Source of the DNA: a phage
Length of the DNA: 43,346 bases
Direction: 5' to 3' (one strand)
Assembly (NCBI GenBank): GCA_031490115.1
Contig: GCA_031490115.1_4355.1
Shown: positions 4,411 to 29,191 of the stretch, in pieces
How positions within the stretch are numbered: the first letter of the stretch is position 1
Layout of the letters: each line of letters begins with the position of its first letter
Position numbers and translations under genes: made by a program
Notes under the pieces: generated by a model
What the model was told of the DNA's origin: nothing
The model's database searches: none
The model's input: the letters and a program-made list of their open reading frames with translations, nothing else

Positions 4411-4539
4411 ATGACAAAGTTAATAGTTCCACAGCTACGCCGCCAGAAACACGGCGCTGACTTCTTCGCACCGGTAAAGATGAACCGCGCAATGCGCCGT
4501 ATGCAGGAAGCCTTAGAACGTGCGGAGAAAAAGAAATGA
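4411..4539 (+). CDS. hypothetical small basic protein
   Basis: 42-aa ORF behind AAGGA; its TGA overlaps the ATG of the primase-helicase gene. Confidence 0.4.
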   Translation: MTKLIVPQLRRQKHGADFFAPVKMNRAMRRMQEALERAEKKK

Positions 4540-7099: not shown

Positions 7100-7102
7100 A
7101 AA

Positions 7103-7125
7103 GAAAGGGGCTTTAAGCCCCTTCA
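7103..7125. terminator. bidirectional hairpin terminator between convergent genes
   Basis: AAGGGGCTT-t-AAGCCCCTT, a perfect 9-bp stem, between the 6785-7099 gene and the convergent XRE gene. Confidence 0.6.
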
Positions 7126-7328
7126 CCTAACGCCAGCCACTTGGCGTCTACTTCCAGAACTTCCGCCAGTTTGAACAGCGTTGCCGGGCGGACGTCCTGA
7201 GTTACTCCAAGTGCCAGTTGGTTAATCGCGCCCTGGGAAACGCCGGTCAGGGCCGCCAAACGGCGCTGGGAGATGCCGAGTTCTTTACGGCGTTGTTCTA
7301 CACGGATACCTAGTTCAGATGGTTGCAT
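7113..7328 (-). CDS. XRE-family HTH transcriptional regulator (Cro/CI-like)
   Basis: 71 aa, RRKELGISQRRLAALTGVSQGAINQLALG is a classic XRE HTH; AAGGAG 8 nt upstream. Confidence 0.8.
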   Translation of the reverse strand: MQPSELGIRVEQRRKELGISQRRLAALTGVSQGAINQLALGVTQDVRPATLFKLAEVLEVDAKWLALGEGA

Positions 7329-7359
7329 GTCAGTTACTCCTTAGTCAGTTGATATGTGA

Positions 7360-7388
7360 ATAGTACCATATTAATTATTTTAGAAAAG
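7360..7388 (-). promoter_or_regulatory. candidate promoter of the XRE regulator gene
   Basis: -10 TACTAT (reverse complement of 7360-7365) with a poor -35; contains the GAATAG/TATT dyad. Confidence 0.4.
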
Positions 7389-7392
7389 CCCA

Positions 7393-7421
7393 TTGACATG
7401 TGAATAGTTCGCTATTATAGT
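7393..7421 (+). promoter_or_regulatory. sigma70-like promoter (TTGACA-N17-TATAGT), rightward
   Basis: TTGACA 7393-7398, 17-nt spacer holding the GAATAG-N4-CTATT dyad, TATAGT 7416-7421. Confidence 0.65.
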
Positions 7422-7449
7422 TAGCCCATACCAAACGAGAGGGGCAGAT

Positions 7450-7677
7450 ATGAACACAATCACTGGGGCCATAGCTAAAGGTTTTCGAGCAATTTTCGGC
7501 GCTCCGCAAGAAGTGTGCACAAAACATAAATTTGTACTTTCTTGCGTAGTAGGGGATGAGTTTGATGGGTTCGATAAACTTGTTGTCTGTGACCATTGCG
7601 GGCAAGAAGCTATTCAACACTCAAACGGTAAATTTGAACTAATAGACGATAGCCTTACAGAAGGCGACGGTGAGTAA
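7450..7677 (+). CDS. hypothetical small Cys-containing protein (zinc-ribbon-like)
   Basis: 75 aa with C...C...CDHC. Confidence 0.45.
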   Translation: MNTITGAIAKGFRAIFGAPQEVCTKHKFVLSCVVGDEFDGFDKLVVCDHCGQEAIQHSNGKFELIDDSLTEGDGE

Positions 7678-7701
7678 CTTACACAAACAGGAGAGAAACA
7701 A

Positions 7702-8211
7702 ATGTTAGAACAATTCTTAAAATTACTGGAGCGTTTCGTAGTTGCACATGAACTGATTGCTGCGAACAGTGCACGCCGTACCGAACTGCCGAAGGCTATC
7801 ACGGCGCCATATGGTAAAGACGTCGACAGTGGTGTCGCAGAAACTGCAACAATCACGCCTACTGTTGTAAAAGAAGAAACAAAAGAAATCCCGGTTGAAG
7901 GTGAAGACGTCGTTGACACCAAACCAGCAGAAGAAGAGAAGCCGAAACGCAAGCCGCGTAAACCTAAAGTAGAGGAGTCTACGCCAGAACCGGAAGAAGA
8001 GGTCGATTACAAGTCTCTGCGTGACCAGATTCAGGCCATCGACGATGCAATTAATGAAGGTCCTAGCGATGCCGCGTGCGACGATTCTGATGAACTGCTG
8101 GAAGAGTTCACTGGTAAGAAAATGAAGATTGCAGCGATTAAAGACGAAGACCTGGCTGAATACCTGGAACGCCTGACAGCAATCAAGAACAAGTATTTCG
8201 AAGAAGAATAA
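7702..8211 (+). CDS. hypothetical highly acidic protein
   Basis: 169 aa, Glu/Asp-rich with one basic patch KPKRKPRKPK; SD AGGAGAG upstream. Confidence 0.5.
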   Translation: MLEQFLKLLERFVVAHELIAANSARRTELPKAITAPYGKDVDSGVAETATITPTVVKEETKEIPVEGEDVVDTKPAEEEKPKRKPRKPKVEESTPEPEEEVDYKSLRDQIQAIDDAINEGPSDAACDDSDELLEEFTGKKMKIAAIKDEDLAEYLERLTAIKNKYFEEE

Positions 8212-8254
8212 CTATCAGGCGGCCTTCGGGCCGCTTTAACGGAGGGGCGGAAAT

Positions 8255-8527
8255 ATGATTTACCAACTCTACCGCGCCGTAGACAGGCGGGATAACACAG
8301 AGGCGTTGTGGCTGTTGCGTGCGCCGTCCGGTGCGCACCAGATGGAAGAGATGGCGTACTTAGGCAAAGTACCGCGTCCTAAAGATATAGGTCGTCACGT
8401 GTCGCAGATTAAGCGCACGACATTCGCCAAGCCCGACTTTTATGTCTTCGAGTCGATGTATGGATGGGCCTTACATTGCGACCACAAGACACGGCATTTA
8501 ATTGACCAGTGGGAGAACAGAGCATGA
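8255..8527 (+). CDS. hypothetical protein
   Basis: 90-aa ORF behind GGAGGGG; ATGA overlap with the nuclease gene. Confidence 0.45.
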   Translation: MIYQLYRAVDRRDNTEALWLLRAPSGAHQMEEMAYLGKVPRPKDIGRHVSQIKRTTFAKPDFYVFESMYGWALHCDHKTRHLIDQWENRA

Positions 8528-9765
8528 TTCTAAAAGAACGCGGTGGCAATAATGATGTGCACGCCTTATTGTCGCCGTCAGGTGCTAAGAAGTGGCTGAC
8601 GTGCAGTGCATCACTGGCCTGTGAAAAAGATATCCCTAACACGTCGGGTAAAGCCGCTGTATTAGGAACCGCCATGCACACCATAGCTGAGGTCCATCTC
8701 AACGCCTATATACGCGGCACTGCGTTGCCGTTGGAGCGTGAAGTCGGCGCTTACGTACTGGATGAAGGCAAAGGTCAGATTAAGGCGCTAATCAGCCCGA
8801 TGAAAGGCGCGGTACTGATTACGGCGGACATGATTGAGCAGGTGCGCAAGTACACCGACTACTGCAAAGCGATTATAGACGTAGCGACTTACGCCAAGCT
8901 GGAAATGCGTGTCAATCTTACTGAGGTATTGCATCCGGGGTATGAAGGCGTTGAGACGTTCGGAACCGCTGATCTCGTTGCTGTCCAGGAACTGGCAAAC
9001 ACCGACGAGCACATGCTCATTATCGGCGACCTGAAAACCGGGCGGCATCGCGTCGAAGCGAAAGAAAACAAGCAGCTTATGCTTTACGCTCTCGGTGTTT
9101 ATCGTCGACTCAAGAGACGTTATAACATAACAACCGTTCGTCTGGTCATCTTCCAGCCTTACGCTGGGGGTGCGACAGAGTGGGGCATCTCGGTTGAAGG
9201 ACTGGAACTGTTCGCTAAGTTCGCACAGAAACGCGCGCTGTTAGCGCTTGATGCGTATTTCCGTGGCAAGAAGAACCTGAAAGCGTCGGACTTCAAGCCA
9301 TCGGTAGATGGTTGTCAGTGGTGCCGGTTCTCTGAACAATGCGCTGCGCGTACAAAGACGGTTAATTCTGTACTGGCGGAAGAACTGGAAGACGACTTTG
9401 TGCTGGAACTGACGCCGGAGCAACTCGTAGCTGAGTATGAGAAGTTGCCGCTGTTGCGCCAGCACATCGACAAGGTTGAGAAAGCTATGGCGGCCGCGTT
9501 GCATTCAGGTAAGAAAGTTCCTGGTTACAAGTTGGTTGAGGGCCGCCCGGGCAATCGTGCGTGGAAAGACGCAGAGAAAGTGGCTGGCAAGTATGGCATA
9601 GCGCTAATGAAGCAAGTGCTCATGACGCCAACCGAAGCGGCTAAAGTCATACCGGAAGATGAACTGAAAGACTTCATTACCCGTAAGCCAGGCGCACCAT
9701 GTGTTGCAACGGCAGACGACAAACGTCCTGAGTGGAATAGGGTAACAGAGGAGGATTTAGAATGA
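8524..9765 (+). CDS. PD-(D/E)xK nuclease, Cas4-like (DUF2800-type)
   Basis: N-terminus HALLSPSGAKKWLTC, then GTAMH, DLKTG, and a C-terminal Cys cluster CQWCRFSEQC, as in Cas4/DUF2800 phage exonucleases. Confidence 0.7.
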   Translation: MILKERGGNNDVHALLSPSGAKKWLTCSASLACEKDIPNTSGKAAVLGTAMHTIAEVHLNAYIRGTALPLEREVGAYVLDEGKGQIKALISPMKGAVLITADMIEQVRKYTDYCKAIIDVATYAKLEMRVNLTEVLHPGYEGVETFGTADLVAVQELANTDEHMLIIGDLKTGRHRVEAKENKQLMLYALGVYRRLKRRYNITTVRLVIFQPYAGGATEWGISVEGLELFAKFAQKRALLALDAYFRGKKNLKASDFKPSVDGCQWCRFSEQCAARTKTVNSVLAEELEDDFVLELTPEQLVAEYEKLPLLRQHIDKVEKAMAAALHSGKKVPGYKLVEGRPGNRAWKDAEKVAGKYGIALMKQVLMTPTEAAKVIPEDELKDFITRKPGAPCVATADDKRPEWNRVTEEDLE

Positions 9766-9965
9766 TTCAAGTAAATGAAATGCCCACAGATAAAGATTTT
9801 GTGATGATATGGCGCTGGGGCGGTTATATCCATTCGGAATCGTTTACGTTCCTGAACGGCACGATGGTGCGATACAACCATGTGGAGGATGAATTCGAAC
9901 CCGTTGATATGAATGATTTCGAGAACATAGTCCGTATTGCGAAATTTTATTTGACACCTGAATAG
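9762..9965 (+). CDS. hypothetical protein
   Basis: 67 aa, coupled through GAGGAGGATTTAGAATGA. Confidence 0.45.
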   Translation: MIQVNEMPTDKDFVMIWRWGGYIHSESFTFLNGTMVRYNHVEDEFEPVDMNDFENIVRIAKFYLTPE

Positions 9966-9979
9966 TTAGCTATTATAGT
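9951..9979 (+). promoter_or_regulatory. sigma70-like promoter (TTGACA-N17-TATAGT)
   Basis: TTGACA 9951-9956, spacer with GAATAG-ttag-CTATT, TATAGT 9974-9979. Confidence 0.65.
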
Positions 9980-10038
9980 TCTAATCACTGACCGGGCAGC
10001 TTCCCGGAGTAAACGAAACTTAAAAGCGAGAAATTAAG

Positions 10039-10665
10039 ATGGGTATTAAACTGAATCTGCGTAAAGTAAACACTGCTTGGGTTAACGTATTTGAACGTGA
10101 AAAAGACCGTGAAAACGATGATGGCTCAATCACTAAAGGCCAGTACAGCGCGACTATCATCCTGCCGTCTGACCATGCTCAAATCGATGCACTCTACGAC
10201 ACCGTTTACGCTGTAGTTGAAGAAGCGTTAGGCGCAGCCGCTGCCGAGAAATGGATGAAGTCCAACTACGGTGAAGGTAAGCACATGGATAAATGCGCGA
10301 TTAAAGACATTGCCGAGCGCGACAATCCGTTTGAAGACTTCCCGGAAGGCTTCTACTTCAAAGCGAAGGCACAGAAACAGCCGCTGATTGTAACCTCTAA
10401 AAAAGGTGAGACTCAGGTAGAGCAGGACTTCAACGTAGACGGCGAACAGATTGAAGGTGAACAGGTTTACAGCGGATGCTTAGCTAACGTAAGCGTTGAA
10501 ATCTGGTTCAGCCAGAAATACAAAGTCCTCGGCGTTAACCTGCTGGCGATTAAATACGTTGGCGAAGGCAAAGCGTTCGGCGGTTCTAAAGTCGCCGCGA
10601 GCGTCAATGACCTGGAAGATGACGAAGAAGATGAAGTACCGCGCCGTGAACGTCGTCGCCGCTAA
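10039..10665 (+). CDS. putative ssDNA-binding protein (DUF2815-like)
   Basis: 208 aa with an acidic C-terminal tail DLEDDEEDEV; lies between the Cas4-like nuclease and the DNA polymerase, as in the DUF2800-DUF2815-PolA module. Confidence 0.5.
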   Translation: MGIKLNLRKVNTAWVNVFEREKDRENDDGSITKGQYSATIILPSDHAQIDALYDTVYAVVEEALGAAAAEKWMKSNYGEGKHMDKCAIKDIAERDNPFEDFPEGFYFKAKAQKQPLIVTSKKGETQVEQDFNVDGEQIEGEQVYSGCLANVSVEIWFSQKYKVLGVNLLAIKYVGEGKAFGGSKVAASVNDLEDDEEDEVPRRERRRR

Positions 10666-10685
10666 TATCTGAATCAATTTTAACT

Positions 10686-10708
10686 AAGGCCCTTCATTGG
10701 GCCTTTTT
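10686..10708 (+). terminator. rho-independent terminator
   Basis: GGCCC-ttcatt-GGGCC followed by TTTTT. Confidence 0.65.
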
Positions 10709-10725
10709 ACTAGGGGTCAAAAATA

Positions 10726-12906
10726 ATGAGTTACCTGTTCTTAGACTTTGAAACATTCTCAGAAGCCGATTTGAAGAAAGTCGGTTCTTACGCTTACGCC
10801 GAACACCCGTCAACCGAAGTGCTTATCTGTACATATGCTTTTGACGACGAACCTGTGCGGGTATGGGATTGCACCGACGGCAGCGACATGCCGGTGGGTT
10901 TACACCGCGCACTGCGCCGCCTTGTTAAGCCCAACAGCCGCATCAAGATGGTGTGGCACAACGGCTCAATGTTCGACAGGCTCATCATGAAACACTGCTG
11001 GGGCTTTGATATTCCCGTAAGCAACACCATTGATACGATGATTTGGGCGTTTCGTCACGCGCTGCCGGGTTCACTTGACGCATTGTGCGAAGTGCTTGGC
11101 GTGTCCGCCGACAACGCGAAAGACAAACGAGGCAAGGCGCTGATTCAGCGTTTCTCTAAACCGACGCCGAAGAACTACAAAATCCGCCGCTACACCGCTG
11201 AAACACATCCCGATGAGTGGGCGCTGTTCATCAAGTATGCCGTTAGCGACATTACTGCGATGCGTGAAGTCTTCCATAAGCTGCCGCGGTGGGGTAACTC
11301 GGAGTTCGAAGACCGTGTACTGGAACTGGACCAGTTAATCAATGACCGTGGGTTTAAGGTTGACGTCGCGCTGGCGGAAGCTGCAATTGAAGCTGTGGAG
11401 AAACACAAGGCGCAGTTACAGGAAGAAGCCCAACGCAATTACGGCGGCTCACTTACCGGTAAAGACTTTCTGCCTATTCTGCGTGAACTCGCCCCCGCGC
11501 ACCGCATCCACAATGCACAGAAGTCGACGCTGAATGACCTTCTTGCTGATGATGATTTACCGGACGACGCCCGGATGATTATCGAAATGCGCCTCGGGGC
11601 CGCGTCAACAGCGTCAACGAAATATACCCCGCTGCTGCTGGGCCGCTCTTCGGACGACCGCCGACGCGGTTGCATACAGTATGGTGGAGCTAAGCGTACA
11701 TTACGATTTGCCGGTAAAGGCTTCCAGCCGCAGAACCTGGCGCGCGGGTACTATCATGATGATGAACTGGATAAAGGCATTTCTGCGTTACTTAAGGGCC
11801 GTGCGCACCGCCGATTTGACGTAGCCAAGCTAACGGCATCGACGGTTCGCAGTTGCATCATACCGGAAGCAGGGCATAAGTTTGTCGTCGCCGATTACTC
11901 TAACGTTGAGGGTCGCGGGCTTGCGTGGCTGGCAGGCGAAGAAACCGCGCTAGATACGTTCCGCGCCGGGCTGGATATTTACTGCGTAACAGCGGGTAAG
12001 ATGTTCGGCATGGAGCCGGATTACATTAAGAAGGAACGTAAAGACTTACGCCAGATTGGTAAGGCCTGCGAACTTGGACTCGGCTACGCCGGGGGTGTTG
12101 GTGCTTTCGTTCAGTTTGCTAAGAACCTCGGCCTCGACCTTGTTGATATGGCTAAAACAATGGACGGGACATTCCCCGACCACATATGGGCTTCTACCGC
12201 GCGCGGGTACGAGTGGGCGCGTATTCAGGAAGCCAAGCGACCACCGCGTCCGGGTGAAAAGGATGACCGACCATCATATATTCTTGATAAGAAAGTCTGG
12301 CGTACATGCGACGCAATTAAGCGTATGTGGCGGGAGTCCCACCCGGAAACAGTAGCTTTCTGGCGTGATATTGAAGACGCAGCTATGGCAGCAATCCGTA
12401 ATCCGGGGAAAGAGTTCACCGCTGGCCCTCGCGGGGTTAAGTTTTCTCGCAACGTAGAAACGGACAACAACGGCAACAAAGTCGCTGGTTGGTGGTTGCG
12501 CATGACGTTGCCGTCAGGTCGCGTTATGTCATACCCGGGCGTCGGGTTGAGCGTGTCAAAAGAGACAGACGAAGACGGAAAAGTTTCTACTAACGTGCGC
12601 ATCAAGTATCAGGGTGAAAATCAGTTAACCAGGCAGTGGGGCTTCCAGTACACCTACTCCGGTAAACTGGTGGAAAACTGCACTCAGGCACTGTGCCGTG
12701 ACTTGCTGGCTAATGCGCTACTTAACGTTGAAGCAAACGGCTACCCGATTGTACTTCACGTACACGATGAGATTATCTGCGAGACACCAGATTTACCAGA
12801 ATACAATGTTGCAGAGCTTGAGCGATTGATGTGCGAATTACCAGAATGGGCGGAGGGGTTCCCTCTTGTAGCGGAAGGTCAGGAGTTAAAACGCTATGCT
12901 AAGTAA
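10726..12906 (+). CDS. family A DNA polymerase with 3'-5' exonuclease domain
   Basis: 726 aa; Exo I LDFETFS, O-helix-like RQIGKACELGLGYAGG, motif C VHDEII. Confidence 0.9.
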   Translation: MSYLFLDFETFSEADLKKVGSYAYAEHPSTEVLICTYAFDDEPVRVWDCTDGSDMPVGLHRALRRLVKPNSRIKMVWHNGSMFDRLIMKHCWGFDIPVSNTIDTMIWAFRHALPGSLDALCEVLGVSADNAKDKRGKALIQRFSKPTPKNYKIRRYTAETHPDEWALFIKYAVSDITAMREVFHKLPRWGNSEFEDRVLELDQLINDRGFKVDVALAEAAIEAVEKHKAQLQEEAQRNYGGSLTGKDFLPILRELAPAHRIHNAQKSTLNDLLADDDLPDDARMIIEMRLGAASTASTKYTPLLLGRSSDDRRRGCIQYGGAKRTLRFAGKGFQPQNLARGYYHDDELDKGISALLKGRAHRRFDVAKLTASTVRSCIIPEAGHKFVVADYSNVEGRGLAWLAGEETALDTFRAGLDIYCVTAGKMFGMEPDYIKKERKDLRQIGKACELGLGYAGGVGAFVQFAKNLGLDLVDMAKTMDGTFPDHIWASTARGYEWARIQEAKRPPRPGEKDDRPSYILDKKVWRTCDAIKRMWRESHPETVAFWRDIEDAAMAAIRNPGKEFTAGPRGVKFSRNVETDNNGNKVAGWWLRMTLPSGRVMSYPGVGLSVSKETDEDGKVSTNVRIKYQGENQLTRQWGFQYTYSGKLVENCTQALCRDLLANALLNVEANGYPIVLHVHDEIICETPDLPEYNVAELERLMCELPEWAEGFPLVAEGQELKRYAK

Positions 12907-13027
12907 ACTGATTATCGCGGTACTGGCGGGATTTGCCGCAGGTGTCTACTGTCACGAGGGTCAATACGGCATGATGGTTGCCATATTGGGCATGTTCATC
13001 GCAATTTATCTGTGGGTGCTGGAATGA
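12896..13027 (+). CDS. tiny hydrophobic peptide (43 aa)
   Basis: First of three ORFs chained by ATGA overlaps; single predicted TM helix. Confidence 0.3.
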   Translation: MLSKLIIAVLAGFAAGVYCHEGQYGMMVAILGMFIAIYLWVLE

Positions 13028-13113
13028 AAATTTACCGGTTCTACGAAGAAGACTGCCGAATCTGTCCGCGCTGCGGGATTGAGCATACGAAACGTGAGGG
13101 GTGTGTATTATGA
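13024..13113 (+). CDS. tiny Cys-rich peptide (29 aa)
   Basis: CRICPRCG motif; ATGA-coupled on both sides. Confidence 0.25.
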   Translation: MKIYRFYEEDCRICPRCGIEHTKREGCVL

Positions 13114-13262
13114 CAATGTTTGTATTTAGGACCATAGTAACCATGCTCGCACTGTTACTCGGCGCGGGAATAGCTGCGATGTTCTGTTACGGCCTGTTCT
13201 TTCAGTTTGCCGGTGTTGCCCTTCTAGGCGGGGCTTTCCTTACCTGGATGCTGCGGTCATGA
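13110..13262 (+). CDS. tiny hydrophobic peptide (50 aa)
   Basis: Two hydrophobic stretches; TGA overlaps the VRR-NUC start. Confidence 0.3.
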   Translation: MTMFVFRTIVTMLALLLGAGIAAMFCYGLFFQFAGVALLGGAFLTWMLRS

Positions 13263-13543
13263 CTAAAGAGGGCCGCATCCAGAAATACGCAAAAGAGCGA
13301 TTTGAGGCCATCGGGGGCCTCGTCCGTAAACTGTCTTATGAGGGGCGCTCCGGCGCTCCCGACCTGCTGGTAATTCTCCCGGGCGGCATCGTCTGGTTCG
13401 TCGAGGTGAAGAAAGACGAAAGCACGAAGCCTGACCCACACCAGTTACGAGAGCATGAGCGGATGCGTAAACGTGGTGCGAATGTTTTTGTCGTCGGGTC
13501 GTTCAAACAGGTTGACGACCTAGTAGCGAGCTATTATAGTTAG
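13259..13543 (+). CDS. VRR-NUC domain nuclease
   Basis: 94 aa; PDLLVILPGG...FVEVK is the PD-(D/E)xK core of VRR-NUC proteins. Confidence 0.75.
   Translation: MTKEGRIQKYAKERFEAIGGLVRKLSYEGRSGAPDLLVILPGGIVWFVEVKKDESTKPDPHQLREHERMRKRGANVFVVGSFKQVDDLVASYYS
13512..13540 (+). promoter_or_regulatory. sigma70-like promoter (TTGACG-N17-TATAGT)
   Basis: Lies in the 3' end of the VRR-NUC gene; same spacer dyad family. Confidence 0.55.
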
Positions 13544-13573
13544 TCATACACCAACAATATAAGGAATTGAGAA

Positions 13574-13768
13574 ATGAAACACGAATATGACCGCAAACCA
13601 GCACGTGACATCGTACCTGGCGACATGATTTTCAACGTTAAGACCCGCCAGCCTGTTGCCGTTGATACTGTGTTCGTCGAGTCAAACGGTAAACTGGTTA
13701 TCGAAGATGTAACAAGCAACGTTACCGCGTTCGGGCGTAAAGAGCTGGTACTCTACGTTAAGGATTGA
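13574..13768 (+). CDS. hypothetical protein
   Basis: 64-aa ORF behind AAGGAA. Confidence 0.45.
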   Translation: MKHEYDRKPARDIVPGDMIFNVKTRQPVAVDTVFVESNGKLVIEDVTSNVTAFGRKELVLYVKD

Positions 13769-15195
13769 ACATGTCTAAATTTATCCGTCGAGAGTACCAG
13801 AAGCTCATGACCTCGTTCATGCTGCAACACCCGCGCTGTAATATCTGGTGCGGAATGGGGGGAGGTAAAACCTCCTCCACTATGTGGGTGCTCAACCGCC
13901 TGTTCCGCAACGGGCAGCTTACGGAAGAGGACCGCGTGTTAATCCTTGCCCCGTTACGTGTTGCGTCCGGTACGTGGCCCGCTGAACAAGAGAAATGGCA
14001 ATTCCCTTGTCTGCGTGTCGTAGATGCAACTGGTTCGGAGAAGCGCCGCATCGCAGCGCTGGAGTCAGATGCTAACGTGGTGTGCACTAACTACGAAGTT
14101 ATCGAGTGGCTAATTGACTACTACGGCAAAGACGACTGGCCTTTTACGGTTATCGTTGCCGATGAAAGCACGAAGCTTAAATCGTTCCGCAGCCGTTCGG
14201 GTGGTAGCAAGCGGGCAAAGGCGCTCAGCAAGGTTGCGTTCGGAAAGGTTAAGCGTTTCATCAACCTGACAGGCACACCGTCACCAAACGGCCTCAAAGA
14301 CTTGTGGGGTCAGAACTGGTTTATCGACGCTGGCGAGCGCCTCGGCTCTTCGTACACAGCATTCACCGACCGCTGGTTTAACTCGGTACAGAAAGGTAAA
14401 TCGGCCATGGCCCGCGAGTATCATGCACGACCGGGTGCGGATAATGAGATTCATCAGAAGATGAAAGACATCAGCCTGACCATAGACCCTGCCGAGTGGT
14501 TTGGTTGTGAAGCGCCTGTTATCGTACCGGTGGAAATAGACCTGCCGAAGAAAGCGCGTCAGGCGTACATAGATATGGAGGAGAAGTTATTCGCAGAACT
14601 GGAGAGCGGGGAAGTTGAAGCGGCTAACGCTGCGGCGAAGACCTCAAAGTGCTTGCAGATTGCATCTGGTGCTGTATATGTAACCGGGCCAGACGGCGAA
14701 GCAACCAAAGAATGGGAGAAAGTGCACGACACGAAACTGGATGCGCTCGAGTCGATTGTTGAGGAGTTGCAGGGTGCGCCGTTGCTGGTAGCCTATCAGT
14801 TTAAACACGAACTGGAGCGTATCCTTAAGCGATTCCCACAGGCACAGGCGTTCGCCAAAGGCGCTAGGGGGAACAAGCAGATGGAAGCGTGGAACCGTGG
14901 GGAAATCGAGATTTTATGCGTGCATCCTGCGTCAGCCGGGCATGGTTTGAATTTACAGGACGGGGGTCATCATCTGGCGTTCGTCTCGCAAGGCTGGAAC
15001 CTTGAGCACTATTTGCAGGTTGTCGAGCGCATAGGTCCAACACGCCAGAAACAGGCGGGTCACGAGCGCCCGGTGTTCCTTTATCACATCGTTGCTAAAG
15101 ACACTCTGGACGAGGTTGTCGCCGCGCGTACCGACGAGAAGAAATCGGTACAGGAAGAGTTGCTTAATTACATGAAGAGACGAGGTAAGAAATGA
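13765..15195 (+). CDS. DEAD/DEAH-box (SNF2-like) DNA helicase
   Basis: Walker A GMGGGKTS, motif II VIVADESTKL, motif III LTGTPSPN, C-terminal helicase domain. Confidence 0.8.
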   Translation: MNMSKFIRREYQKLMTSFMLQHPRCNIWCGMGGGKTSSTMWVLNRLFRNGQLTEEDRVLILAPLRVASGTWPAEQEKWQFPCLRVVDATGSEKRRIAALESDANVVCTNYEVIEWLIDYYGKDDWPFTVIVADESTKLKSFRSRSGGSKRAKALSKVAFGKVKRFINLTGTPSPNGLKDLWGQNWFIDAGERLGSSYTAFTDRWFNSVQKGKSAMAREYHARPGADNEIHQKMKDISLTIDPAEWFGCEAPVIVPVEIDLPKKARQAYIDMEEKLFAELESGEVEAANAAAKTSKCLQIASGAVYVTGPDGEATKEWEKVHDTKLDALESIVEELQGAPLLVAYQFKHELERILKRFPQAQAFAKGARGNKQMEAWNRGEIEILCVHPASAGHGLNLQDGGHHLAFVSQGWNLEHYLQVVERIGPTRQKQAGHERPVFLYHIVAKDTLDEVVAARTDEKKSVQEELLNYMKRRGKK

Positions 15196-15707
15196 TGGAT
15201 TTCGAAGAGTTTCTACTTAAAGCTCATCTGCTGGCGCGTGGGTTTGACGCTGACCGTCTCCAGGTAGTCTTAGCCCCTGGAGTAGCTACGTTTTACCTGT
15301 GGGGGTTTGACGGTAGGCTTCGCGGATACCAGCATTACAAACCACATGCCGAAAAGAACTGTAAAAACCCTAAAGACGCGCGGTACTTTACCAGAACAAC
15401 AAGGCCGTGTTTATGGGGGCTTGAGTATTTGCCGGAAAGCGGGGTGGTATTTGTTACCGAAAGCATATTCAAAGCCGTAGCCTTGATGAATTGCGGGTTC
15501 AATGCTGTAAGCGCACTGGGGTCAAATATATCAACAGACCTACGGCAGCAAATGTCACTTTTGCCGTATGACTGGGTGTGCGCTGGCGACAATGATAAAG
15601 CTGGATTAAAGTTCAGCAAAACATTCACCAGAGGATTTGTATCTAACGACCTTGATGAACTTTGTGAAGAAGAAATAACGTATCTTGCGAGGAAATTTAC
15701 CAGATGA
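15192..15707 (+). CDS. Toprim-domain protein (primase-like)
   Basis: VVFVTESIFKAVAL (conserved Glu) and CAGDNDKAG (DxD) fit a Toprim fold. Confidence 0.5.
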   Translation: MMDFEEFLLKAHLLARGFDADRLQVVLAPGVATFYLWGFDGRLRGYQHYKPHAEKNCKNPKDARYFTRTTRPCLWGLEYLPESGVVFVTESIFKAVALMNCGFNAVSALGSNISTDLRQQMSLLPYDWVCAGDNDKAGLKFSKTFTRGFVSNDLDELCEEEITYLARKFTR

Positions 15708-25346: not shown

Positions 25347-25719
25347 AGATTGCTTCTAAGCCCATGATAATGTCTATCTCGAACAGGCTAAGCTGTTTTT
25401 GCGTAACATCGAGATAGGCTTTCAGGTCTTGCCACGTAACGGATTCTCTTGCGAACAATACTACAGCGTCCTCGCGCACGTGTCGCGTAAACTTAATGTC
25501 ACAGTACGTCTCAAAGGTGGATATAAAAAGGGGCGGGCATTCTGGCCCACCCCGTCGCGCTGCACGTTTTTTCTTATCGATTACACCCATCGCGATAAGC
25601 GCCTGTTCGTGTCCGTCAGCTATAGAATCAAACTCTCTGATTTTATGCTTATCCACAAACTCGTAGGTGGCGAACCTGTACAGCGCGTCTACTTTTCCTG
25701 TAATGCTTTGCGCTCGGCG
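25324..25719 (-). CDS. tail assembly chaperone T segment (candidate -1 frameshift extension of G)
   Basis: Reading frame open from 25719 and in the -1 frame relative to the G ORF; overlaps the last ~10 codons of G, where the mRNA reads CAG GAA AAG TAG. Confidence 0.5.
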   Translation of the reverse strand, partial: RRAQSITGKVDALYRFATYEFVDKHKIREFDSIADGHEQALIAMGVIDKKKRAARRGGPECPPLFISTFETYCDIKFTRHVREDAVVLFARESVTWQDLKAYLDVTQKQLSLFEIDIIMGLEAIFEGRNHG

Positions 25720-26108
25720 TTATGGAACGCTGCAACCTGGGTTCCAAGCCCTTTGAACTGGTCGAGCAATTTGTTAAACGCTTCCTTAGAGAAAGGCTCG
25801 TCGTCAAAGCTCCAGCCGTTTACGACTTCTGCCGCGAGTTGTCGGTTGAGGTCTTCCGCCAGTTCATTAACCGCCAGGTTATATTCAGTATAGTCGCCGG
25901 ATTCTTTGGCGGCTTTTTCCAGTTCTTCAAAACGCGCCAGCCCGCGGCGGTACGCGATAATGAAAGCACGCCCCGCTTTAACGGCGACATCGGCATCTGG
26001 ACTTACAACATTAAGCCACTCACCGGAGTCTTCGCCGTTTGGTAGCAGAATCGGCATCTTCTTGCCTACCAGTGCTTTCTCTTCGAAATAGAAATCAGAA
26101 AGTTTCAT
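25689..26108 (-). CDS. tail assembly chaperone (gpG-like)
   Basis: 139 aa, acidic, between major tail and tape measure genes. Confidence 0.6.
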   Translation of the reverse strand: MKLSDFYFEEKALVGKKMPILLPNGEDSGEWLNVVSPDADVAVKAGRAFIIAYRRGLARFEELEKAAKESGDYTEYNLAVNELAEDLNRQLAAEVVNGWSFDDEPFSKEAFNKLLDQFKGLGTQVAAFHNAERKALQEK

Positions 26109-26217
26109 TCTTTAATCCTTTGGTTAAGAGGTTACGGGTTAACGATAAATGCGCCAGACGGGAACCACCCGCTTTTCGTGTGCGACACTAGGCGCAAAAA
26201 TTATTCTACCACAATAC

Positions 26218-26246
26218 TTGCACACCCCAATATAATAGGGTACTAT
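26218..26246 (+). promoter_or_regulatory. sigma70-like promoter (TTGCAC-N17-TACTAT), rightward
   Basis: Same element as 35065-35093; 30 nt upstream of the Imm-like gene. Confidence 0.6.
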
Positions 26247-26276
26247 TCACTTACACCAACAATGGAGGGGTTTAAA

Positions 26277-26468
26277 ATGTCCAGTTTACCAGTTTCCTTA
26301 ATTCTGTTTGCACTGCTCGCTTATTTCGCGCCTTTCCTGGTTGCGTATTTCCGTAACCATAAAGCGAAATTAGCGATATTCATGGCTAATCTGTTTCTTG
26401 GATGGGTTCTGCTGCCGTGGGTATTTATTTTAATCTGGGCTTGCAACTCGAATGTCAAAGAGAAGTGA
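26277..26468 (+). CDS. superinfection immunity (Imm)-like small membrane protein
   Basis: 63 aa from the ATG behind GGAGGGG; YFAPFLVAYFRNHKAKLAIFMANLFLGWVLLPWVFILIWA fits the Imm-type two-TM pattern (YF.P...R.H...AIF..N.FLGW). Confidence 0.6.
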   Translation: MSSLPVSLILFALLAYFAPFLVAYFRNHKAKLAIFMANLFLGWVLLPWVFILIWACNSNVKEK

Positions 26469-26505
26469 GCTAGTATAGGACAAATCCTAAGCACGAGGAA
26501 TAAAC

Positions 26506-26787
26506 ATGGCCCGGAAGAAAATAACCGACGAACAGTTGCAGGAAGAATTGAACGCCGGTATGAAGAATGTAGATATCGCCCGTAAATACGGCATCTCAGA
26601 CCGCGTAATTCGTATCCGTAAAGCGAAGCTGGCTAAGAAAGGCGTGGGCCACGGGCGCGACGTTAGCCACCTTGTGCCAGACGGCTACAAGATTAAAGGA
26701 ACGTCGTCACTTGTGGACGAGTTCGGCAACACTAAGTTGCAATGGGTTAAGACTGATACCGACGCCGAACGTCGGGTTGAATTGTAG
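26506..26787 (+). CDS. putative HTH DNA-binding protein
   Basis: 93 aa; NVDIARKYGISDRVIRIRKAKL is HTH-like. Confidence 0.45.
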   Translation: MARKKITDEQLQEELNAGMKNVDIARKYGISDRVIRIRKAKLAKKGVGHGRDVSHLVPDGYKIKGTSSLVDEFGNTKLQWVKTDTDAERRVEL

Positions 26788-26798
26788 AAAGCCGTAAC

Positions 26799-26951
26799 AT
26801 GATTGTTGAGCAACACCGCACCTTAGCGGCTAAAGACGCCTACGCCTCTCGCGGCGGATGGATGTCGGGCCGCAGTGCAAATGTAATTACTTATAGCGCC
26901 GAATATGGCGAGGTCGCACGTTTAACTATTTCACCGGAGATGCTGGGATGA
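26799..26951 (+). CDS. hypothetical small protein (50 aa)
   Basis: ORF not in the six-frame list; TGA overlaps the ATG of the phosphatase gene. Confidence 0.3.
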   Translation: MIVEQHRTLAAKDAYASRGGWMSGRSANVITYSAEYGEVARLTISPEMLG

Positions 26952-27436
26952 AAGATATTGTAATTTTCGATTTAGACGGGACATTGGCTGACGGTACCCA
27001 TCGCTTACACCTGTTACCAAAAGATAACTACGGAGAAACGTGGGCGTGGAAGCCATTTAACATGGCCTGCAAAGATGACGCTCCGATATACGACAATATC
27101 CATTTGTGTAGCGTACTGTGGCATTCCGGACTTACTATAATTATCCTTACCGGGCGAAGTGATGACGCTGAGGAGGAGACTCGCGAATGGTTACGAGAGA
27201 ATAACGTTAGGTTTGACACGCTAATCATGCGCAGCAAACACGACAACAGAAAAGACATCGTAATTAAAGAAGAGGTGTTGCGTGCTTTCGGACTGGAAAG
27301 AATCTTGTGTGCGTTCGACGACTCTCCAGCGGTAATAAAGCATTTCCGTGACCTCGGCATAACCGCACACGCAGTTACCGAATACGACTGTAACGGGAAC
27401 TCTACACACTTAAAACCACACGGGAGCGATAAATAA
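26948..27436 (+). CDS. HAD-family phosphatase resembling the 3'-phosphatase domain of T4 polynucleotide kinase
   Basis: Motif I IVIFDLDGTLADG, motif II ILTGRSD, motif III DNRKDIVIKEEV and a C-terminal FDDS acidic motif parallel the T4 Pnk phosphatase domain. Confidence 0.65.
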   Translation: MKDIVIFDLDGTLADGTHRLHLLPKDNYGETWAWKPFNMACKDDAPIYDNIHLCSVLWHSGLTIIILTGRSDDAEEETREWLRENNVRFDTLIMRSKHDNRKDIVIKEEVLRAFGLERILCAFDDSPAVIKHFRDLGITAHAVTEYDCNGNSTHLKPHGSDK

Positions 27437-27990
27437 TGGCTAAGGTAATTATTCTTAATGGCCCCGCGGGTTGCGGGAAAGACACGCTTGCTATGGCGCT
27501 GGTAGAAATGGGCTTTGCGAAAGGAACTACCAGTTTCAAGAATCCAATGTTCAATATTGCTTTGGCAGCGTTAGGCCAGGATGCTTACCACGAATTTCTC
27601 GACGGCTACGACGACCGGGCGCGGAAAGAAAAACCCGAGGGTTTTCTTAATGGGTTGTCCCGCCGCCGGTTAATGATTGCCATTTCTGAGCAATTCATTA
27701 AACCGGTATTCGGCGATGATTATTTCGGTAAGTATCTTGCTGAAAACTTGCCTGACGGCGACGAAGTTTTTGTAGTGTCCGATGGTGGATTCGCCAGTGA
27801 AGTTGCCCCTATCGTCGCCGCGGGGCATGACGTGCGAATCGTCCGCCTCCATCGTGACGGCTATACGTTCATCTGCGATAGCCGTGGCTATCTGTACGAT
27901 ATTGATGGTGTAAAAGATTACGACACCTACATCATACCGGGTGACGTTAAATCGAACGTTATAGACATTGCTTTAAAATTAGGTTTGTAA
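27436..27990 (+). CDS. P-loop kinase, dNMP-kinase-like (T4 gene 1-like)
   Basis: Walker A GPAGCGKDT (the G...GKDT variant of T4 dNMP kinase), then SRRRLMIAISEQ and VVSDGGFASE blocks. Confidence 0.55.
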   Translation: MAKVIILNGPAGCGKDTLAMALVEMGFAKGTTSFKNPMFNIALAALGQDAYHEFLDGYDDRARKEKPEGFLNGLSRRRLMIAISEQFIKPVFGDDYFGKYLAENLPDGDEVFVVSDGGFASEVAPIVAAGHDVRIVRLHRDGYTFICDSRGYLYDIDGVKDYDTYIIPGDVKSNVIDIALKLGL

Positions 27991-27994
27991 GAAA

Positions 27995-28020
27995 AAGGCC
28001 CCGAAAGGGGCCTTAGTTTT
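27995..28020. terminator. bidirectional terminator
   Basis: GGCCCC-gaaa-GGGGCC followed by TTAGTTTT; overlaps the major tail gene stop. Confidence 0.65.
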
Positions 28021-29191
28021 ATGCGTAGGTGATACGTTGAATTACGATAGACGACTGGTACTGATTGCCGGTAGCCTGGCCTTCAATGGACTGAGTGATT
28101 GACTCAGGCCCACCAATCTCTGGTGTTACTGCTGTAAGCTCTGCGCGTTTCAAACTGAAAGACATCGCCCCGTTTACCCCAGCCAGAATAGAGTTAATCT
28201 CTACCTGCTGCTCGTTGATAAACTTCTGAATCATAGCCATGTCGTACAGCTTGCCGGAGATGGAGAAGGTGTTAGCCGCGCGGCTACGTTCCACAAACGC
28301 TACGTTAGTGTTGCCGAGTTCGAACTGTGCGGACGCGCTGTTGTCGTTGGTGATGGTAAGGCTATCGCAACGCAACGGGGTAGAACCGTCGAACACGGAA
28401 ACGTCAACCGAAGAGAACGGCTCATCACCAAAAGTAACAGATGAGAAGTTGGAACCGGTCGGCCGCGTAGTGAGAATCTCCTGACTGCGACCGATGAATG
28501 GGAAGCTGCCAGTTACCATCGCGTTAACAGCCTGTTCGATGGTAAAACCAGAAACTTCCACGCCTTTGGTTAACGTGTACGCGTCAGTACCGCCGCACTG
28601 GCCTTTGTACCAGGTAAGGATAGAGAACGTCTTACACGTGTTACCAGTTTCCAGCTTGTCGCCGGTTTTAGCCTTACTAGTTTTTGTCTCGGGGGTCAGG
28701 GTGTGTTGGATGCCCGCACCAGTAACAACCGTAGCCGTCACTGCAGTAACAATAAATGGTTTTGCGTTATCGCCTGTTAAATCGGTAAATGCAATCAGGT
28801 CGCCTATCTCAACTCCGTCAGTGATAAAACTGCCGGTAGCGCGTGTGAACGTCTTGCCTGCAGGCGCGACGGTAATTGATAGCTTGGTCAGAGAACTACC
28901 GGATCGCCATGTAGAGCCTAAAGCACCCGCCAGCCAGTCGTCCTGGCTTTTCGAGCTAAGCTCAATAGCGTATTCTCCGCTAACCTGCTTGTTACCGGTG
29001 CGGATTGACGTAGTTTCACGGCTGCCGTCCAGTTCGTTGGAGGTCAGCGTGTCGCGGGTAATGGCAGGAACGCCACCTGTGTTACGCAATGGCGACCAGA
29101 CCGGGTTAGTCGGTGTTACGCCAGGGGTAGTTTCTGCCACATAGAATTGCGCAGTATTCGCGCCCTTAAAAGGAGTTGTAGCCATATTCAC
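28019..29191 (-). CDS. major tail protein
   Basis: 390 aa, directly upstream (in operon order) of the G/T chaperones and tape measure. Confidence 0.65.
   Translation of the reverse strand: MNMATTPFKGANTAQFYVAETTPGVTPTNPVWSPLRNTGGVPAITRDTLTSNELDGSRETTSIRTGNKQVSGEYAIELSSKSQDDWLAGALGSTWRSGSSLTKLSITVAPAGKTFTRATGSFITDGVEIGDLIAFTDLTGDNAKPFIVTAVTATVVTGAGIQHTLTPETKTSKAKTGDKLETGNTCKTFSILTWYKGQCGGTDAYTLTKGVEVSGFTIEQAVNAMVTGSFPFIGRSQEILTTRPTGSNFSSVTFGDEPFSSVDVSVFDGSTPLRCDSLTITNDNSASAQFELGNTNVAFVERSRAANTFSISGKLYDMAMIQKFINEQQVEINSILAGVNGAMSFSLKRAELTAVTPEIGGPESITQSIEGQATGNQYQSSIVIQRITYA

Follow-up and report, generated by a model that had tools for sequence, protein, structure and literature searches.

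Why does a siphophage carry a block of non-structural genes within its tail module, oriented against the structural genes that surround it? The window, by which we mean the whole 43,346-nt stretch of DNA analyzed, is a genome of the Kagunavirus type (Guernseyvirinae), and the block in question occupies 26218–28014 of its plus strand. The initial annotation had described five plus-strand genes, equipped with their own promoter and a bidirectional terminator, and had proposed a moron-type host-interaction or anti-defense locus. Its account of the position and of the strand switch was confirmed, the block lying between minus-strand genes for the tail assembly chaperone and the tail tube (Table 1), and no structural gene was found among the products. 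The orientation of the block is the same as that of the replication genes at 4536–15707. Over this region the window shares 90–92% identity with Kagunavirus genomes whose annotated block encodes a superinfection immunity protein, a DNA repair exonuclease (metallophosphoesterase), a polynucleotide kinase, and a dNMP kinase. The block is already annotated in dozens of GenBank phages, and the sole new point is a 685-bp deletion that destroys one of its enzyme genes. By content the block consists of four genes: imm, a helix-turn-helix (HTH)-metallophosphoesterase gene, a PNKP-type HAD phosphatase gene, and a gene for a T4-gp1-like dNMP kinase. At 26948–26951 and at 27436, the stop codon of one gene overlaps the start codon of the next, consistent with translational coupling. 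The imm, HAD, and kinase genes of the window have kept their conserved residues and are under purifying selection.

Table 1. Coordinates of the block, its control elements, and the flanking tail genes in the window.
Feature	Position	Strand	Description
Tail assembly chaperone gene	25689-26108	minus	
Minus-strand control element	26134-26211	minus	Extended -10 and int-alpA-like RNA; leads into chaperone gene
Cassette promoter (predicted)	26218-26246	plus	-35 TTGCAC 26218-26223, 17-nt spacer, -10 TACTAT 26241-26246
imm	26277-26468	plus	63 aa, two-transmembrane, superinfection-immunity family
5' remnant, HTH-metallophosphoesterase gene	26506-26787	plus	93 aa, residues 1-93 of 376
Deletion junction	26781-26797		Surviving hybrid copy of imperfect 17-nt direct repeat
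3' remnant, metallophosphoesterase gene	26799-26951	plus	50-aa ORF, residues 327-376
PNKP-type HAD (DxDxT) phosphatase gene	26948-27436	plus	162 aa, without kinase domain
P-loop small-molecule kinase gene	27436-27990	plus	184 aa, closest to T4 gp1 dNMP kinase
Bidirectional intrinsic terminator (predicted)	27995-28014	both	Common to cassette and convergent tail tube gene
Tail tube gene	28019-29191	minus	

The count of four genes rather than five follows from comparison with relatives, which carry a single 376-aa metallophosphoesterase gene at the position where the window has two short ORFs. The 93-aa ORF matches positions 2–106, and the 50-aa ORF positions 341–389, of the 390-position phrog_704 profile, and the former can be aligned to the complete genes of EM1, K-02, and UTI89UKE1. 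What had been taken for a stand-alone HTH gene is therefore the N-terminal stump of a deleted gene, and the small ORF that follows is its other end. The stump encodes a helix-turn-helix and a β-hairpin and terminates at a TAG created by the deletion; the evidence for the HTH is weak to moderate (GerE, E = 0.014; LrpA, E = 0.019; Sigma70_r4_2, E = 4.7e-6 in one homolog). The 3' remnant reads as an ORF only because residue 327 is a methionine, and it still overlaps the start of the HAD gene in ATGA. In intact relatives the breakpoints are marked by 17-nt direct repeats, ATTGATGAAAGCCGTAA on the left and ATTGTAGAAAGCCGTAA on the right, which match at 15 of 17 positions. The two BLAST pieces overlap at query positions 682–698 and are separated by 685 bp in L001, L002, and L003. 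A 685-bp deletion between the repeats removed residues 94–326 and with them all five catalytic motifs. The metal-binding motifs DxH, GDxxH, GNH[DE], H, and GHxH are present in seven intact homologs and absent from the window; the residues D130, H132, D179, H182, N236, H237, H282, H315, and H317, invariant in the seven diverse homologs, all fall within the deleted span. The 3' remnant is 100% identical in nucleotide sequence to the intact genes of K-02, Golestan, phiEc3, phiEc4, and others, and the remnants display no excess of non-synonymous change, indicating that the deletion is recent.

A deletion that ends in a short repeat could in principle be an artifact, the real gene being intact and the 685-bp gap arising from a collapse between the 17-nt repeats during assembly or sequencing. 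The junction does lie exactly within a short direct repeat, a kind of site at which both assemblers and polymerases may slip, and it recurs in no other record of four large collections: as one contiguous piece it was found in 0 of 672 phage records, and its exact pattern had no matches in IMG/VR, the JGI metagenomes, or the GTDB genomes. However, a repeat matching at 15 of 17 positions is far too short to make a modern assembly collapse, and the same deletion allele was recovered in a Logan contig (L011, run SRR24751124) that has an identical junction and matches the window at 100% identity over 3568 nt, although this run is possibly the window's own source. That such deletions occur in this gene is demonstrated by another Kagunavirus contig (L008), which has an independent 786-bp in-frame deletion between perfect 11-nt repeats. 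We therefore regard an artifact as highly improbable. A further lesion, a 1-nt frameshift found in three samples (L009 and L010), comes from short-read assemblies and is possibly a sequencing error. Disruption of the gene is rare: it is found in 2041 phage records, 1958 of which hold at least 80% of it. When the 93-aa stump was used as query in a large protein search, only 12 short fragments and no full-length proteins came back, and other truncated alleles were thereby revealed; truncated products number about a dozen against 3578 homologs.

The biochemical identity of the lost enzyme was approached through its intact homologs. These fall below the Pfam gathering thresholds (21.7 bits against 27, and 18.9 against 21.5) for calcineurin-like metallophosphoesterases (PF00149, PF12850). 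Searches of the PDB by sequence and by profile gave no significant match, the best being SbcD (E = 0.13) and Mre11 (E = 2), and in an hhalign comparison with T5 A1 the GNHD motif alone was aligned, with a probability of 3.5%. An AlphaFold2 model of the full-length protein was discarded due to its low confidence (pLDDT 41.3); its alignment held near-identical sequences only (A3, 97–99% identity). With no significant solved relative, no demonstrable kinship to T5 A1, and a poor structural model, the designation of this protein as a nuclease is a guess.

Of the surviving genes, imm is alone in carrying a signature of host interaction or exclusion. The initial annotation had recognized an Imm-like product with two transmembrane segments, and this assignment holds: the protein scores 47.4 bits with PF14373 (Imm_superinfect), where the cut-off is 27.9 (E = 1.7e-12), and matches phrog_1039, 'immunity to superinfection', at E = 1.6e-24. 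Two hydrophobic segments, defined by 19-residue windows with a Kyte-Doolittle mean above 2, span residues 4–24 and 32–56, with the basic loop RNHKAK between them. The start codon is the ATG at 26277, which is preceded by a Shine-Dalgarno sequence, GGAGG, at 26265–26269, 7 nt upstream. The GTG at 26178 was rejected as the start in favor of this ATG. Values of dN/dS against relatives range from 0 to 0.075, and tblastn searches with imm reach the imm genes of T4-like Proteus phages. As with T4 Imm, the product is a small predicted inner-membrane protein that matches PF14373 above the curated threshold. It differs from T4 Imm in being 63 aa long and encoded within a siphovirus tail module, and its role in exclusion is putative.

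The HAD gene, which has its own GGAG ribosome-binding site, encodes the PNK-like phosphatase expected from the initial annotation. A profile search matched the protein to HAD_PNKP (PF25109) at 73.1 bits against a cut-off of 27.6 (E = 3.3e-20) and to phrog_415 at E = 3e-64, and among solved structures it is closest to Pnkp1 (4xrp) and the phosphatase domain of T4 PNK (5uj0, 1ltq). It aligns with the DxDxT phosphatase domains of T4 Pnkp and Capnocytophaga Pnkp1, and the catalytic motifs DLDGT, TGR, RKD, and FDD are all present. Unlike those proteins, it has no fused 5'-kinase domain, and no ligase partner was found. The GenBank label 'polynucleotide kinase' is misleading, because the protein lacks a kinase domain and the kinase encoded next to it is not PNK-like by fold. 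A dN/dS of about 0.06 was obtained for the HAD gene.

For the last gene, the proposal of a dNMP-kinase-like product holds, given a match to phrog_139 (E = 1e-44), a PHROG family named dNMP kinase, and a predicted structure. The AlphaFold2 model (pLDDT 94.3) found its best PDB fold match in 1DEK, the T4 gp1 dNMP kinase (E = 2.7e-5, TMq 0.66), with a silkworm phosphomevalonate kinase scoring almost equally; T4 PNK was absent from the top 50 PDB fold matches. T4 gp1 and the cassette kinase share an NMP-kinase fold with a GxxGxGKD P-loop, but they are only 20% identical (TM 0.66) and differ in length (241 aa and 184 aa, respectively). T7 gp1.7 is a functional parallel to T4 gp1. The window retains the P-loop GPAGCGKDT and 18 invariant residues, and the gene has a dN/dS of about 0.1. 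No Pfam or NCBIfam model reached threshold for the kinase, nor did the NCBIfam search yield anything above threshold for the cassette proteins.

The block had also been credited with its own σ70-like promoter, and conservation supports such a prediction. In an alignment of about 48 distinct relatives, the hexamers and spacer length of TTGCAy-N17-TAnTAT are kept while the spacer sequence varies, a clear phylogenetic footprint for a predicted σ70-type promoter whose support comes from this conservation and not from its consensus score. Only 7 of 12 consensus positions match, which is why a consensus scan missed it. The numbers of promoter-like and terminator-like sites returned by the scan in this region were not above those in shuffled sequence (8 against 5.2 ± 2.0 and 10 against 8.1 ± 3.3, respectively). 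The scan's sole plus-strand promoter match nearby, at 26250–26278, was rejected, as its -10 overlaps the imm start codon. A perfect TATAAT at 26231–26236 was likewise not accepted as the main -10; it has no -35 and is kept only in Kagunavirus-type relatives, being absent in Jersey-type relatives, and so was demoted to a possible second start. At the other end of the block, a G+C-rich stem of 8 pairs (AAGGCCCC/GGGGCCTT) has a folding energy of -15.4 to -19.9 kcal/mol (a range also quoted as -15 to -20). An A-run precedes and a T-run follows the hairpin, so the terminator is predicted to work on both strands, as had been claimed. With one exception, the relatives checked all keep it, irrespective of the gene that precedes it, and its loop alternates between GAAA and TTTC. 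The conserved promoter and terminator support the view of the block as an oppositely oriented, independent transcription unit within the tail module.

A control element was also found on the other strand, leading into the chaperone gene. It consists of an extended -10, TGnTAGAAT (26211 down to 26203), in which the TG and TAGAAT are kept among relatives while the middle base varies, followed by an int-alpA-like RNA (26198 down to 26134). The extended -10 promoter interleaves with the cassette promoter. In a local search, the window's RNA scored 31.9 bits against Rfam RF02996 (E = 4e-5), where the gathering threshold is 35.8, and the homologous element of K-02 scored 36.6 bits, which is above gathering. 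Among 16 distinct sequences, 95% of cells were paired and compensatory changes occurred in 6 of 15 pairs. The covariation score of 0.322, compared with 0.142 in shuffles, was reached by 0 of 500 shuffles and collapsed when pairing partners were slid. These data support an int-alpA-like three-helix structure. We also considered the intergenic hairpin as a plus-strand terminator, and rejected this because the G-U pairs and the Rfam match favor the minus strand.

Comparison of synteny among relatives bears on whether the block is a moron. The blocks of other Kagunavirus phages (K1G, K1ind1-3, EM1, vB_Eco_K-02, UTI89UKE1, RP180, Golestan, and others) have the same position, strands, promoter block, and terminator, and their imm, HAD, and kinase products are 85–100% identical to those of the window at the protein level; they differ in that their 376-aa HTH-metallophosphoesterase is intact, where the window has fragments of 93 and 50 aa. 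The whole unit occurs in each of 45 flanked IMG/VR relatives, which were retrieved with the metallophosphoesterase as query. Among these, the first slot holds imm in 29, an unrelated 108-aa signal-peptide protein in 11, and neither in 5; the last slot holds HAD and kinase genes in 16 and a 76-aa ORF in 24. All four pairings of first and last slot occur. The region is a gene-exchange hot spot, mosaic around a metallophosphoesterase anchor. Further afield, the order metallophosphoesterase-HAD-kinase recurs in Webervirus 1513 outside any tail module, and podovirus J8-65 has the metallophosphoesterase followed by HAD. Many lineages that have the metallophosphoesterase lack the HAD and kinase genes, and the absence of these two in Jersey-type relatives indicates that the three enzymes need not occur together.

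Morons of lambdoid phages were defined by Hendrix and colleagues. The block resembles them as a unit with its own predicted promoter and terminator within a late operon, but it comprises several genes, the central one of which occurs in all the relatives examined, and only its flanking slots behave as exchangeable. The proposal of a moron-type host-interaction or anti-defense locus, made up of five separate genes including a stand-alone HTH regulator, accordingly stands in part. The promoter and terminator, the opposite orientation within a conserved operon, the presence of an Imm-family gene, and the differences among relatives in the first and last slots all agree with it. The count of five genes is refuted by the assignment of two ORFs to the ends of one gene, and the enzymes belong to nucleotide and nucleic-acid-end families. 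No PADLOC model matched any cassette protein or the proteins of the alternative slots. The metallophosphoesterase gene, which also served as the search query, occurs in all the relatives examined as well as in the 2041 phage records, arguing that the block is not simply a dispensable moron. As a description of the whole block, we consider a moron locus quite unlikely.

We consider it probable that the block is instead a Guernseyvirinae accessory operon, placed between the chaperone and tail tube genes and antisense to the structural genes, that serves in nucleotide salvage and has recently had one gene destroyed. Judged by their families, the cassette enzymes look like participants in nucleotide or DNA-end metabolism. 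Host RNA polymerase would transcribe the block together with the early/middle DNA-metabolism genes of the same strand. Imm would insert into the inner membrane of the host and, like T4 Imm, keep the genomes of later phages from entering, while the enzymes would process the nucleotides and DNA ends that infection sets free. In phages that carry the intact gene, the metallophosphoesterase may act as a nuclease or phosphodiesterase, the HAD enzyme would take off 3'-phosphates, and the kinase would turn (d)NMP into (d)NDP, together supplying phage DNA synthesis. The first step of such salvage would be lost in the window phage, implying that the phage can do without it, at least for a short time. 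Several observations fit less well. The solved structures closest to the HAD protein are of enzymes whose substrates are RNA or DNA ends and not free nucleotides, and the match of the kinase to T4 gp1 is moderate (TM 0.66, 20% identity). One transcriptome paper classes a Kagunavirus imm gene as late (PMC12645636), a poor fit with an early/middle operon. In the literature on this block in Kagunavirus-type phages we found annotation only and no experiments.

A phage operon of related composition is T5 dmp-A1-A2, in which a metallo-phosphatase that drives host DNA breakdown is paired with a nucleotide phosphatase (bioRxiv 10.64898/2026.04.02.716235). Both this pre-early operon and the cassette combine a predicted metallo-phosphatase, a DNA-binding function, and a nucleotide phosphatase. 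In contrast, A1 has no detectable homology to the metallophosphoesterase beyond GNHD, and T5 Dmp dephosphorylates dNMPs for export where the cassette has a kinase. The parallel may be taken as an analogy only.

The kinship of the HAD protein to the RNA-repair enzymes Pnkp1 and T4 PNK raises the alternative of a split RNA end-healing system. According to this model, host anticodon nucleases cut tRNAs, whose ends are healed by the HAD phosphatase, the kinase, and, in intact phages, the metallophosphoesterase, acting as a 2',3'-cyclic phosphodiesterase, and then sealed by a host ligase, much as for T4 and bacterial Pnkp. The three genes are translationally coupled, and bacterial Pnkp (PMC2190708, PMC3675462) joins a kinase to a metallophosphoesterase that heals cyclic-phosphate ends. 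Guernseyvirinae are also sensitive to the tRNA-cleaving HEPN defense Ec2ApeA (bioRxiv 10.64898/2026.01.26.701840). The kinase points elsewhere, however: in fold it comes closest to T4 dNMP kinase, a small-molecule enzyme, with T4 PNK outside the top 50, and both its GKDT P-loop and the database names 'phosphomevalonate kinase' and 'dNMP kinase' indicate small substrates. The lineages that have the metallophosphoesterase without HAD and kinase also speak against such a system, and the lack of tRNA genes in the window and of an annotated RNA ligase in the close relative EM1 argues against T4-style RNA repair. We consider RNA end-healing unlikely.

The lesions in the metallophosphoesterase gene could be adaptive, if the enzyme or its products are toxic or trigger a defense, with the 93-aa HTH stump retaining a regulatory role. 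Lesions have arisen independently three times (the deletion in the window, the 786-bp deletion, and the frameshift), and the N-terminal HTH part is translatable in every one of them. T5 A1, also a metallo-phosphatase, is toxic if expressed alone (bioRxiv 10.64898/2026.04.02.716235), and ApeA senses dinucleotides from DNA breakdown in a defense to which Guernseyvirinae are sensitive (bioRxiv 10.64898/2026.01.26.701840). Yet the lesions are rare, as expected from sporadic loss of any non-essential gene, ApeA yielded no escape mutants (bioRxiv 10.64898/2026.01.26.701840), and the frameshift is known from short-read assemblies alone and may be a sequencing error. Adaptive loss is for these reasons very unlikely. 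An extended form, in which the HTH-metallophosphoesterase would process host DNA or nucleotides and be sensed by immunity, the lesions would represent escape, and the interleaved promoters with the int-alpA-like RNA would act as a switch between the cassette and the tail operon, we regard as speculative and very doubtful.

For annotation, a short HTH ORF accompanied by a tiny ORF in a conserved block should be compared with relatives before a regulator is named, and GenBank records that name the 162-aa protein 'polynucleotide kinase' are partly wrong, since it is the phosphatase half only. The int-alpA-type RNA, positioned at the 5' end of the tail chaperone/tape-measure transcript, gives a concrete context in lytic phages to an orphan Rfam motif. 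The window phage is a natural knock-out of a metallophosphoesterase known from approximately 2000 phage genomes of several families, and near-identical phages with the intact gene, K-02 and Golestan, are at hand for a comparison that would reveal the role of the enzyme. Finally, the slot-wise exchange of genes around a fixed anchor provides a natural swap design for exclusion and nucleotide-salvage functions.

The 43.3-kb window is essentially the complete genome of a Kagunavirus-type siphophage (Guernseyvirinae), with 90–94% identity to phages such as SHAK7858, EM1, K1G, and K-02. Its replication genes lie on the plus strand and its structural genes on the minus strand, in agreement with an annotated relative. 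The plus-strand ORFs described in the initial annotation are present where they had been placed, between the two minus-strand genes for the tail assembly chaperone and the tail tube. As is usual, the tail assembly chaperone is arranged in two reading frames. From 25719 the downstream frame is open, overlapping the final 10 codons of the 139-aa ORF; a candidate -1 frameshift site, G GAA AAG (25698 down to 25692, minus strand), directly precedes the TAG stop, and phrog_15027 covers both frames as one protein.

The cassette had been described as five genes, one of them an independent helix-turn-helix (HTH) gene. It contains four, of which one is broken. The products of two small ORFs, ORF2 and ORF3, match the two ends of a single profile, phrog_704 (named 'DNA repair exonuclease'), and the HTH ORF is not a gene in its own right, being instead the N-terminal end of a metallophosphoesterase gene that has suffered a deletion. 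In all annotated relatives this site is occupied by one 376-aa gene, encoding an N-terminal HTH followed by a calcineurin-like metallophosphoesterase. Pairwise BLAST of the window against the relatives gave two collinear pieces; these share 17 nt in the window and are separated by 685 bp in the relatives. The intact genes contain an imperfect direct repeat (left copy, ATTGATGAAAGCCGTAA; right copy, ATTGTAGAAAGCCGTAA), of which one hybrid copy is left in the window. As 685 is not divisible by three, translation from the left side terminates at the TAG of the right repeat copy; the 50-aa 'gene' is the old C-terminus of the metallophosphoesterase, with an internal Met as its chance start codon. 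All five metallophosphoesterase motifs, which are invariant in seven homologues with identity down to 31%, fall within the deleted residues 94–326.

We also examined the distribution of the deletion allele. The junction was found as one contiguous piece in none of the 672 phage records matching this stretch, and its pattern was not found in IMG/VR, the JGI metagenomes, or the GTDB genomes. The same allele was found in a Logan assembly made from run SRR24751124, where it lies in a stretch of 3568 bases that agrees fully with the window. Based on these searches, including the Logan match, we accept the 685-bp deletion as real and leave a small probability to an artefact. The event is recent, since the 3' remnant shows 100% nucleotide identity to the intact genes in at least 14 GenBank phage records and neither remnant has an excess of non-synonymous change.

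Coordinates of features in the window and in the comparison loci (L008–L010, Logan contigs; L012, Bas72; L013, Jersey)
Feature	Position	Strand	Description
Tail assembly chaperone	25689-26108	minus	PF08748, phrog_15027
int-alpA-like RNA	26198 down to 26134	minus	Rfam RF02996, full model length; 5' leader of tail assembly chaperone gene
Extended -10 TGnTAGAAT	26211 down to 26203	minus	Conserved, middle base free to vary; directly upstream of int-alpA-like RNA
Cassette promoter	TTGCAC 26218-26223; TACTAT 26241-26246	plus	17-nt spacer; conserved footprint
ORF2, 93 aa	26506-26787	plus	phrog_704 positions 2-106
ORF3, 50 aa	26799-26951	plus	phrog_704 positions 341-389
Kinase, 184 aa	27436-27990	plus	
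Terminator hairpin	27995-28014	both	Stem AAGGCCCC/GGGGCCTT
Tail tube gene	28019-29191	minus	PF18906
108-aa alternative in imm slot	L012 2601-2927; L013 2601-2930; L008 2610-2936		phrog_14165
76-aa ORF in HAD/kinase slot	L013 4120-4350		phrog_2452
KilAC-domain Ant-like protein in HAD/kinase slot	L013 4551-5162		PF03374, E 1.6e-9
786-bp in-frame deletion	L008 3001-3345		25-kb contig, Logan SRR24987873; perfect 11-nt repeats TCCGTAAAGCG; product P0107, 114 aa
1-nt deletion, gene position 198	L009 3001-4130; L010		32-kb contig and second contig, three samples; Logan ERR13245413, ERR13245596

Lesions of the metallophosphoesterase gene independent of that in the window were found in other Kagunavirus contigs, one being a larger in-frame deletion and the other a 1-nt deletion that splits the gene into parts with 92-aa and 283-aa products. 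The HTH end stays translatable in all three lesions. The metallophosphoesterase is found in 2041 phage records, 1958 of which hold at least 80% of the gene. Set against a total of 3578 homologues, the frequency of lesions fits the sporadic loss of a dispensable gene; adaptive loss, for instance to evade a defence triggered by the metallophosphoesterase or its products, is possible but unsupported. A 507-nt ENA contig encodes a 116-aa product that fuses metallophosphoesterase residues 1–85, the HTH end, in frame with the last 31 residues of Imm. The fusion probably arose as an assembly chimera, although a rearrangement inside the cassette could also account for it.

The assignments proposed for the other three products were borne out. 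The imm gene starts at the ATG at 26277, with GGAGG 7 nt upstream, and encodes 63 aa as annotated in EM1 and K-02. The protein passes the Pfam cut-off for the T4 Imm family and has two hydrophobic helices with a basic loop between them, and a tblastn search with it reaches the imm genes of T4-like Proteus phages. The 162-aa HAD phosphatase matches the HAD_PNKP profile (E 3e-20), with the DxDxT, Arg, Lys, and Asp-Asp motifs all in place; among solved structures it is closest to Pnkp1 and to the T4 PNK phosphatase domain. Since it contains no kinase domain, the name 'polynucleotide kinase' given to it in databases says too much. The 184-aa kinase has the P-loop GPAGCGKDT and 18 invariant residues, and gave a confident AlphaFold2 model (pLDDT 94.3) for which the best solved fold is the T4 dNMP kinase 1DEK (E 2.7e-5, TMq 0.66). 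In this search a phosphomevalonate kinase from an insect was likewise among the high-ranking matches, and T4 PNK was not in the top 50. With dN/dS values of 0–0.12, the imm, HAD, and kinase genes are under strong purifying selection. Successive genes overlap (ATGA at 26948–26951; one common base at 27436), and since each of HAD and kinase has a Shine-Dalgarno sequence of its own, their translation could continue despite the deletion. In the window, two substitutions in the kinase, Q78R and G147C, set it apart from 41 close homologues and adjoin the invariant residues R77 and D148, respectively. Its dN/dS rises to 0.34–0.73 against the closest relatives, values that rest on very few changes. 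Chance could account for these features, as could a relaxation of constraint once the neighbouring enzyme was lost.

The proposal that the cassette has its own promoter is supported by conservation and not by a consensus scan. The promoter matches 7 of 12 consensus positions. When about 48 distinct relatives are aligned, ranging from Kagunavirus through Jersey-type to more distant loci, the two hexamers and their 17-nt separation are preserved and the sequence of the spacer varies; this pattern at 26218–26246 is the classical footprint that would be expected of a real promoter. The consensus scan alone is no proof of a promoter, because promoter-like and terminator-like sites were not commoner than in shuffled sequence. 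Its sole plus-strand promoter match by the cassette, at 26250–26278, overlaps the imm start codon and was rejected. The predicted terminator was also found, as a hairpin with a folding energy of -15 to -20 kcal/mol that is retained in essentially every relative regardless of the gene preceding it. An A-run before the stem and a T-run after it would allow termination on both strands. The loop is GAAA in some relatives and the complement TTTC in others, with the stem unchanged, which suggests that the palindrome has been inverted repeatedly.

A second conserved element, a structured RNA resembling int-alpA, lies in the 168 bp that separate imm from the chaperone gene. Its score in the window (31.9 bits) is just below the gathering score of 35.8, and the same element in K-02 scores above it (36.6 bits). 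In 16 distinct Guernseyvirinae sequences, pairing in the three-helix structure reaches 95%, compensatory changes are seen in 6 of 15 pairs, and the observed covariation score was equalled by no shuffle. Judging from the position of the extended -10, the chaperone/tape-measure transcript would start at the first base of this structure. The divergent promoters are interleaved (26203–26246), the plus-strand -35 lying just behind the minus-strand -10; due to this interleaving, we infer that occupancy of one may exclude the other, and the pair may form a switch that selects either the cassette or the tail operon.

To compare cassettes, we used the intact metallophosphoesterase as a query and retrieved 73 IMG/VR loci, all of which therefore contain this gene by construction; 45 of the 73 have the chaperone-tube placement. 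The first slot of these 45 is occupied by imm in 29, by a 108-aa signal-peptide protein in 11, and by neither in 5. The last slot holds HAD and kinase in 16 and a 76-aa ORF in 24, to which, as in phage Jersey, an Ant-like protein with a KilAC domain is sometimes added. The two slots were seen in all four pairings, and several loci have additional spacing suggestive of more small inserts. GenBank counts agree, with 368 phage records matched by the Imm protein and 99 by the 108-aa protein. The latter is unrelated to Imm, has an N-terminal signal-peptide-like segment (MRKLIIALGLISFCAVGS...) and no Pfam match, and may be a different exclusion protein. HAD and kinase at 80% identity or more are found in only about 55 records, the other approximately 1500–1800 matches being in Drexlerviridae and other families. 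The metallophosphoesterase occurs without companions in Dhillonvirus and Vibrio phages, is followed by HAD and kinase far from any tail gene in Webervirus 1513, and is followed by HAD in podovirus J8-65. This slot variation, together with the contexts of the metallophosphoesterase elsewhere, identifies the region as a recombination hot spot around a fixed anchor gene, the metallophosphoesterase. In the window, the dead gene is the anchor gene itself.

Literature searches turned up annotations only for this block and no experiments on its genes. In the best reading, imm would be a superinfection-exclusion gene, swappable for another gene in the same slot, and the enzymes would form a nucleotide or DNA-end processing pathway supplying phage DNA synthesis, with the metallophosphoesterase as a nuclease or phosphodiesterase, the HAD enzyme as a 3'-phosphatase, and the kinase as a (d)NMP kinase. 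The chief alternative would be a split system for healing RNA ends, which the nearest solved relatives of the HAD enzyme suggest. We rate it lower because T4 dNMP kinase is the nearest fold to the kinase and a ligase is missing, no RNA ligase being annotated in the close relative EM1. These same observations, the lack of tRNA genes in the window, and the orientation of the cassette, which is that of the replication genes, favor the processing pathway. The T5 dmp-A1-A2 operon, in which a nucleotide phosphatase is paired with a predicted metallo-phosphatase that drives host DNA degradation (bioRxiv 10.64898/2026.04.02.716235), offers a precedent by analogy only, as hhalign finds no real similarity between T5 A1 and the cassette metallophosphoesterase. 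The earlier interpretation holds for imm and for a separate transcription unit, and fails where it counts the HTH ORF as an independent gene and reads the block as a whole as anti-defence. The block is a known feature, already annotated, of a well-sampled phage genus, and what the window newly contributes is a private loss-of-function allele.
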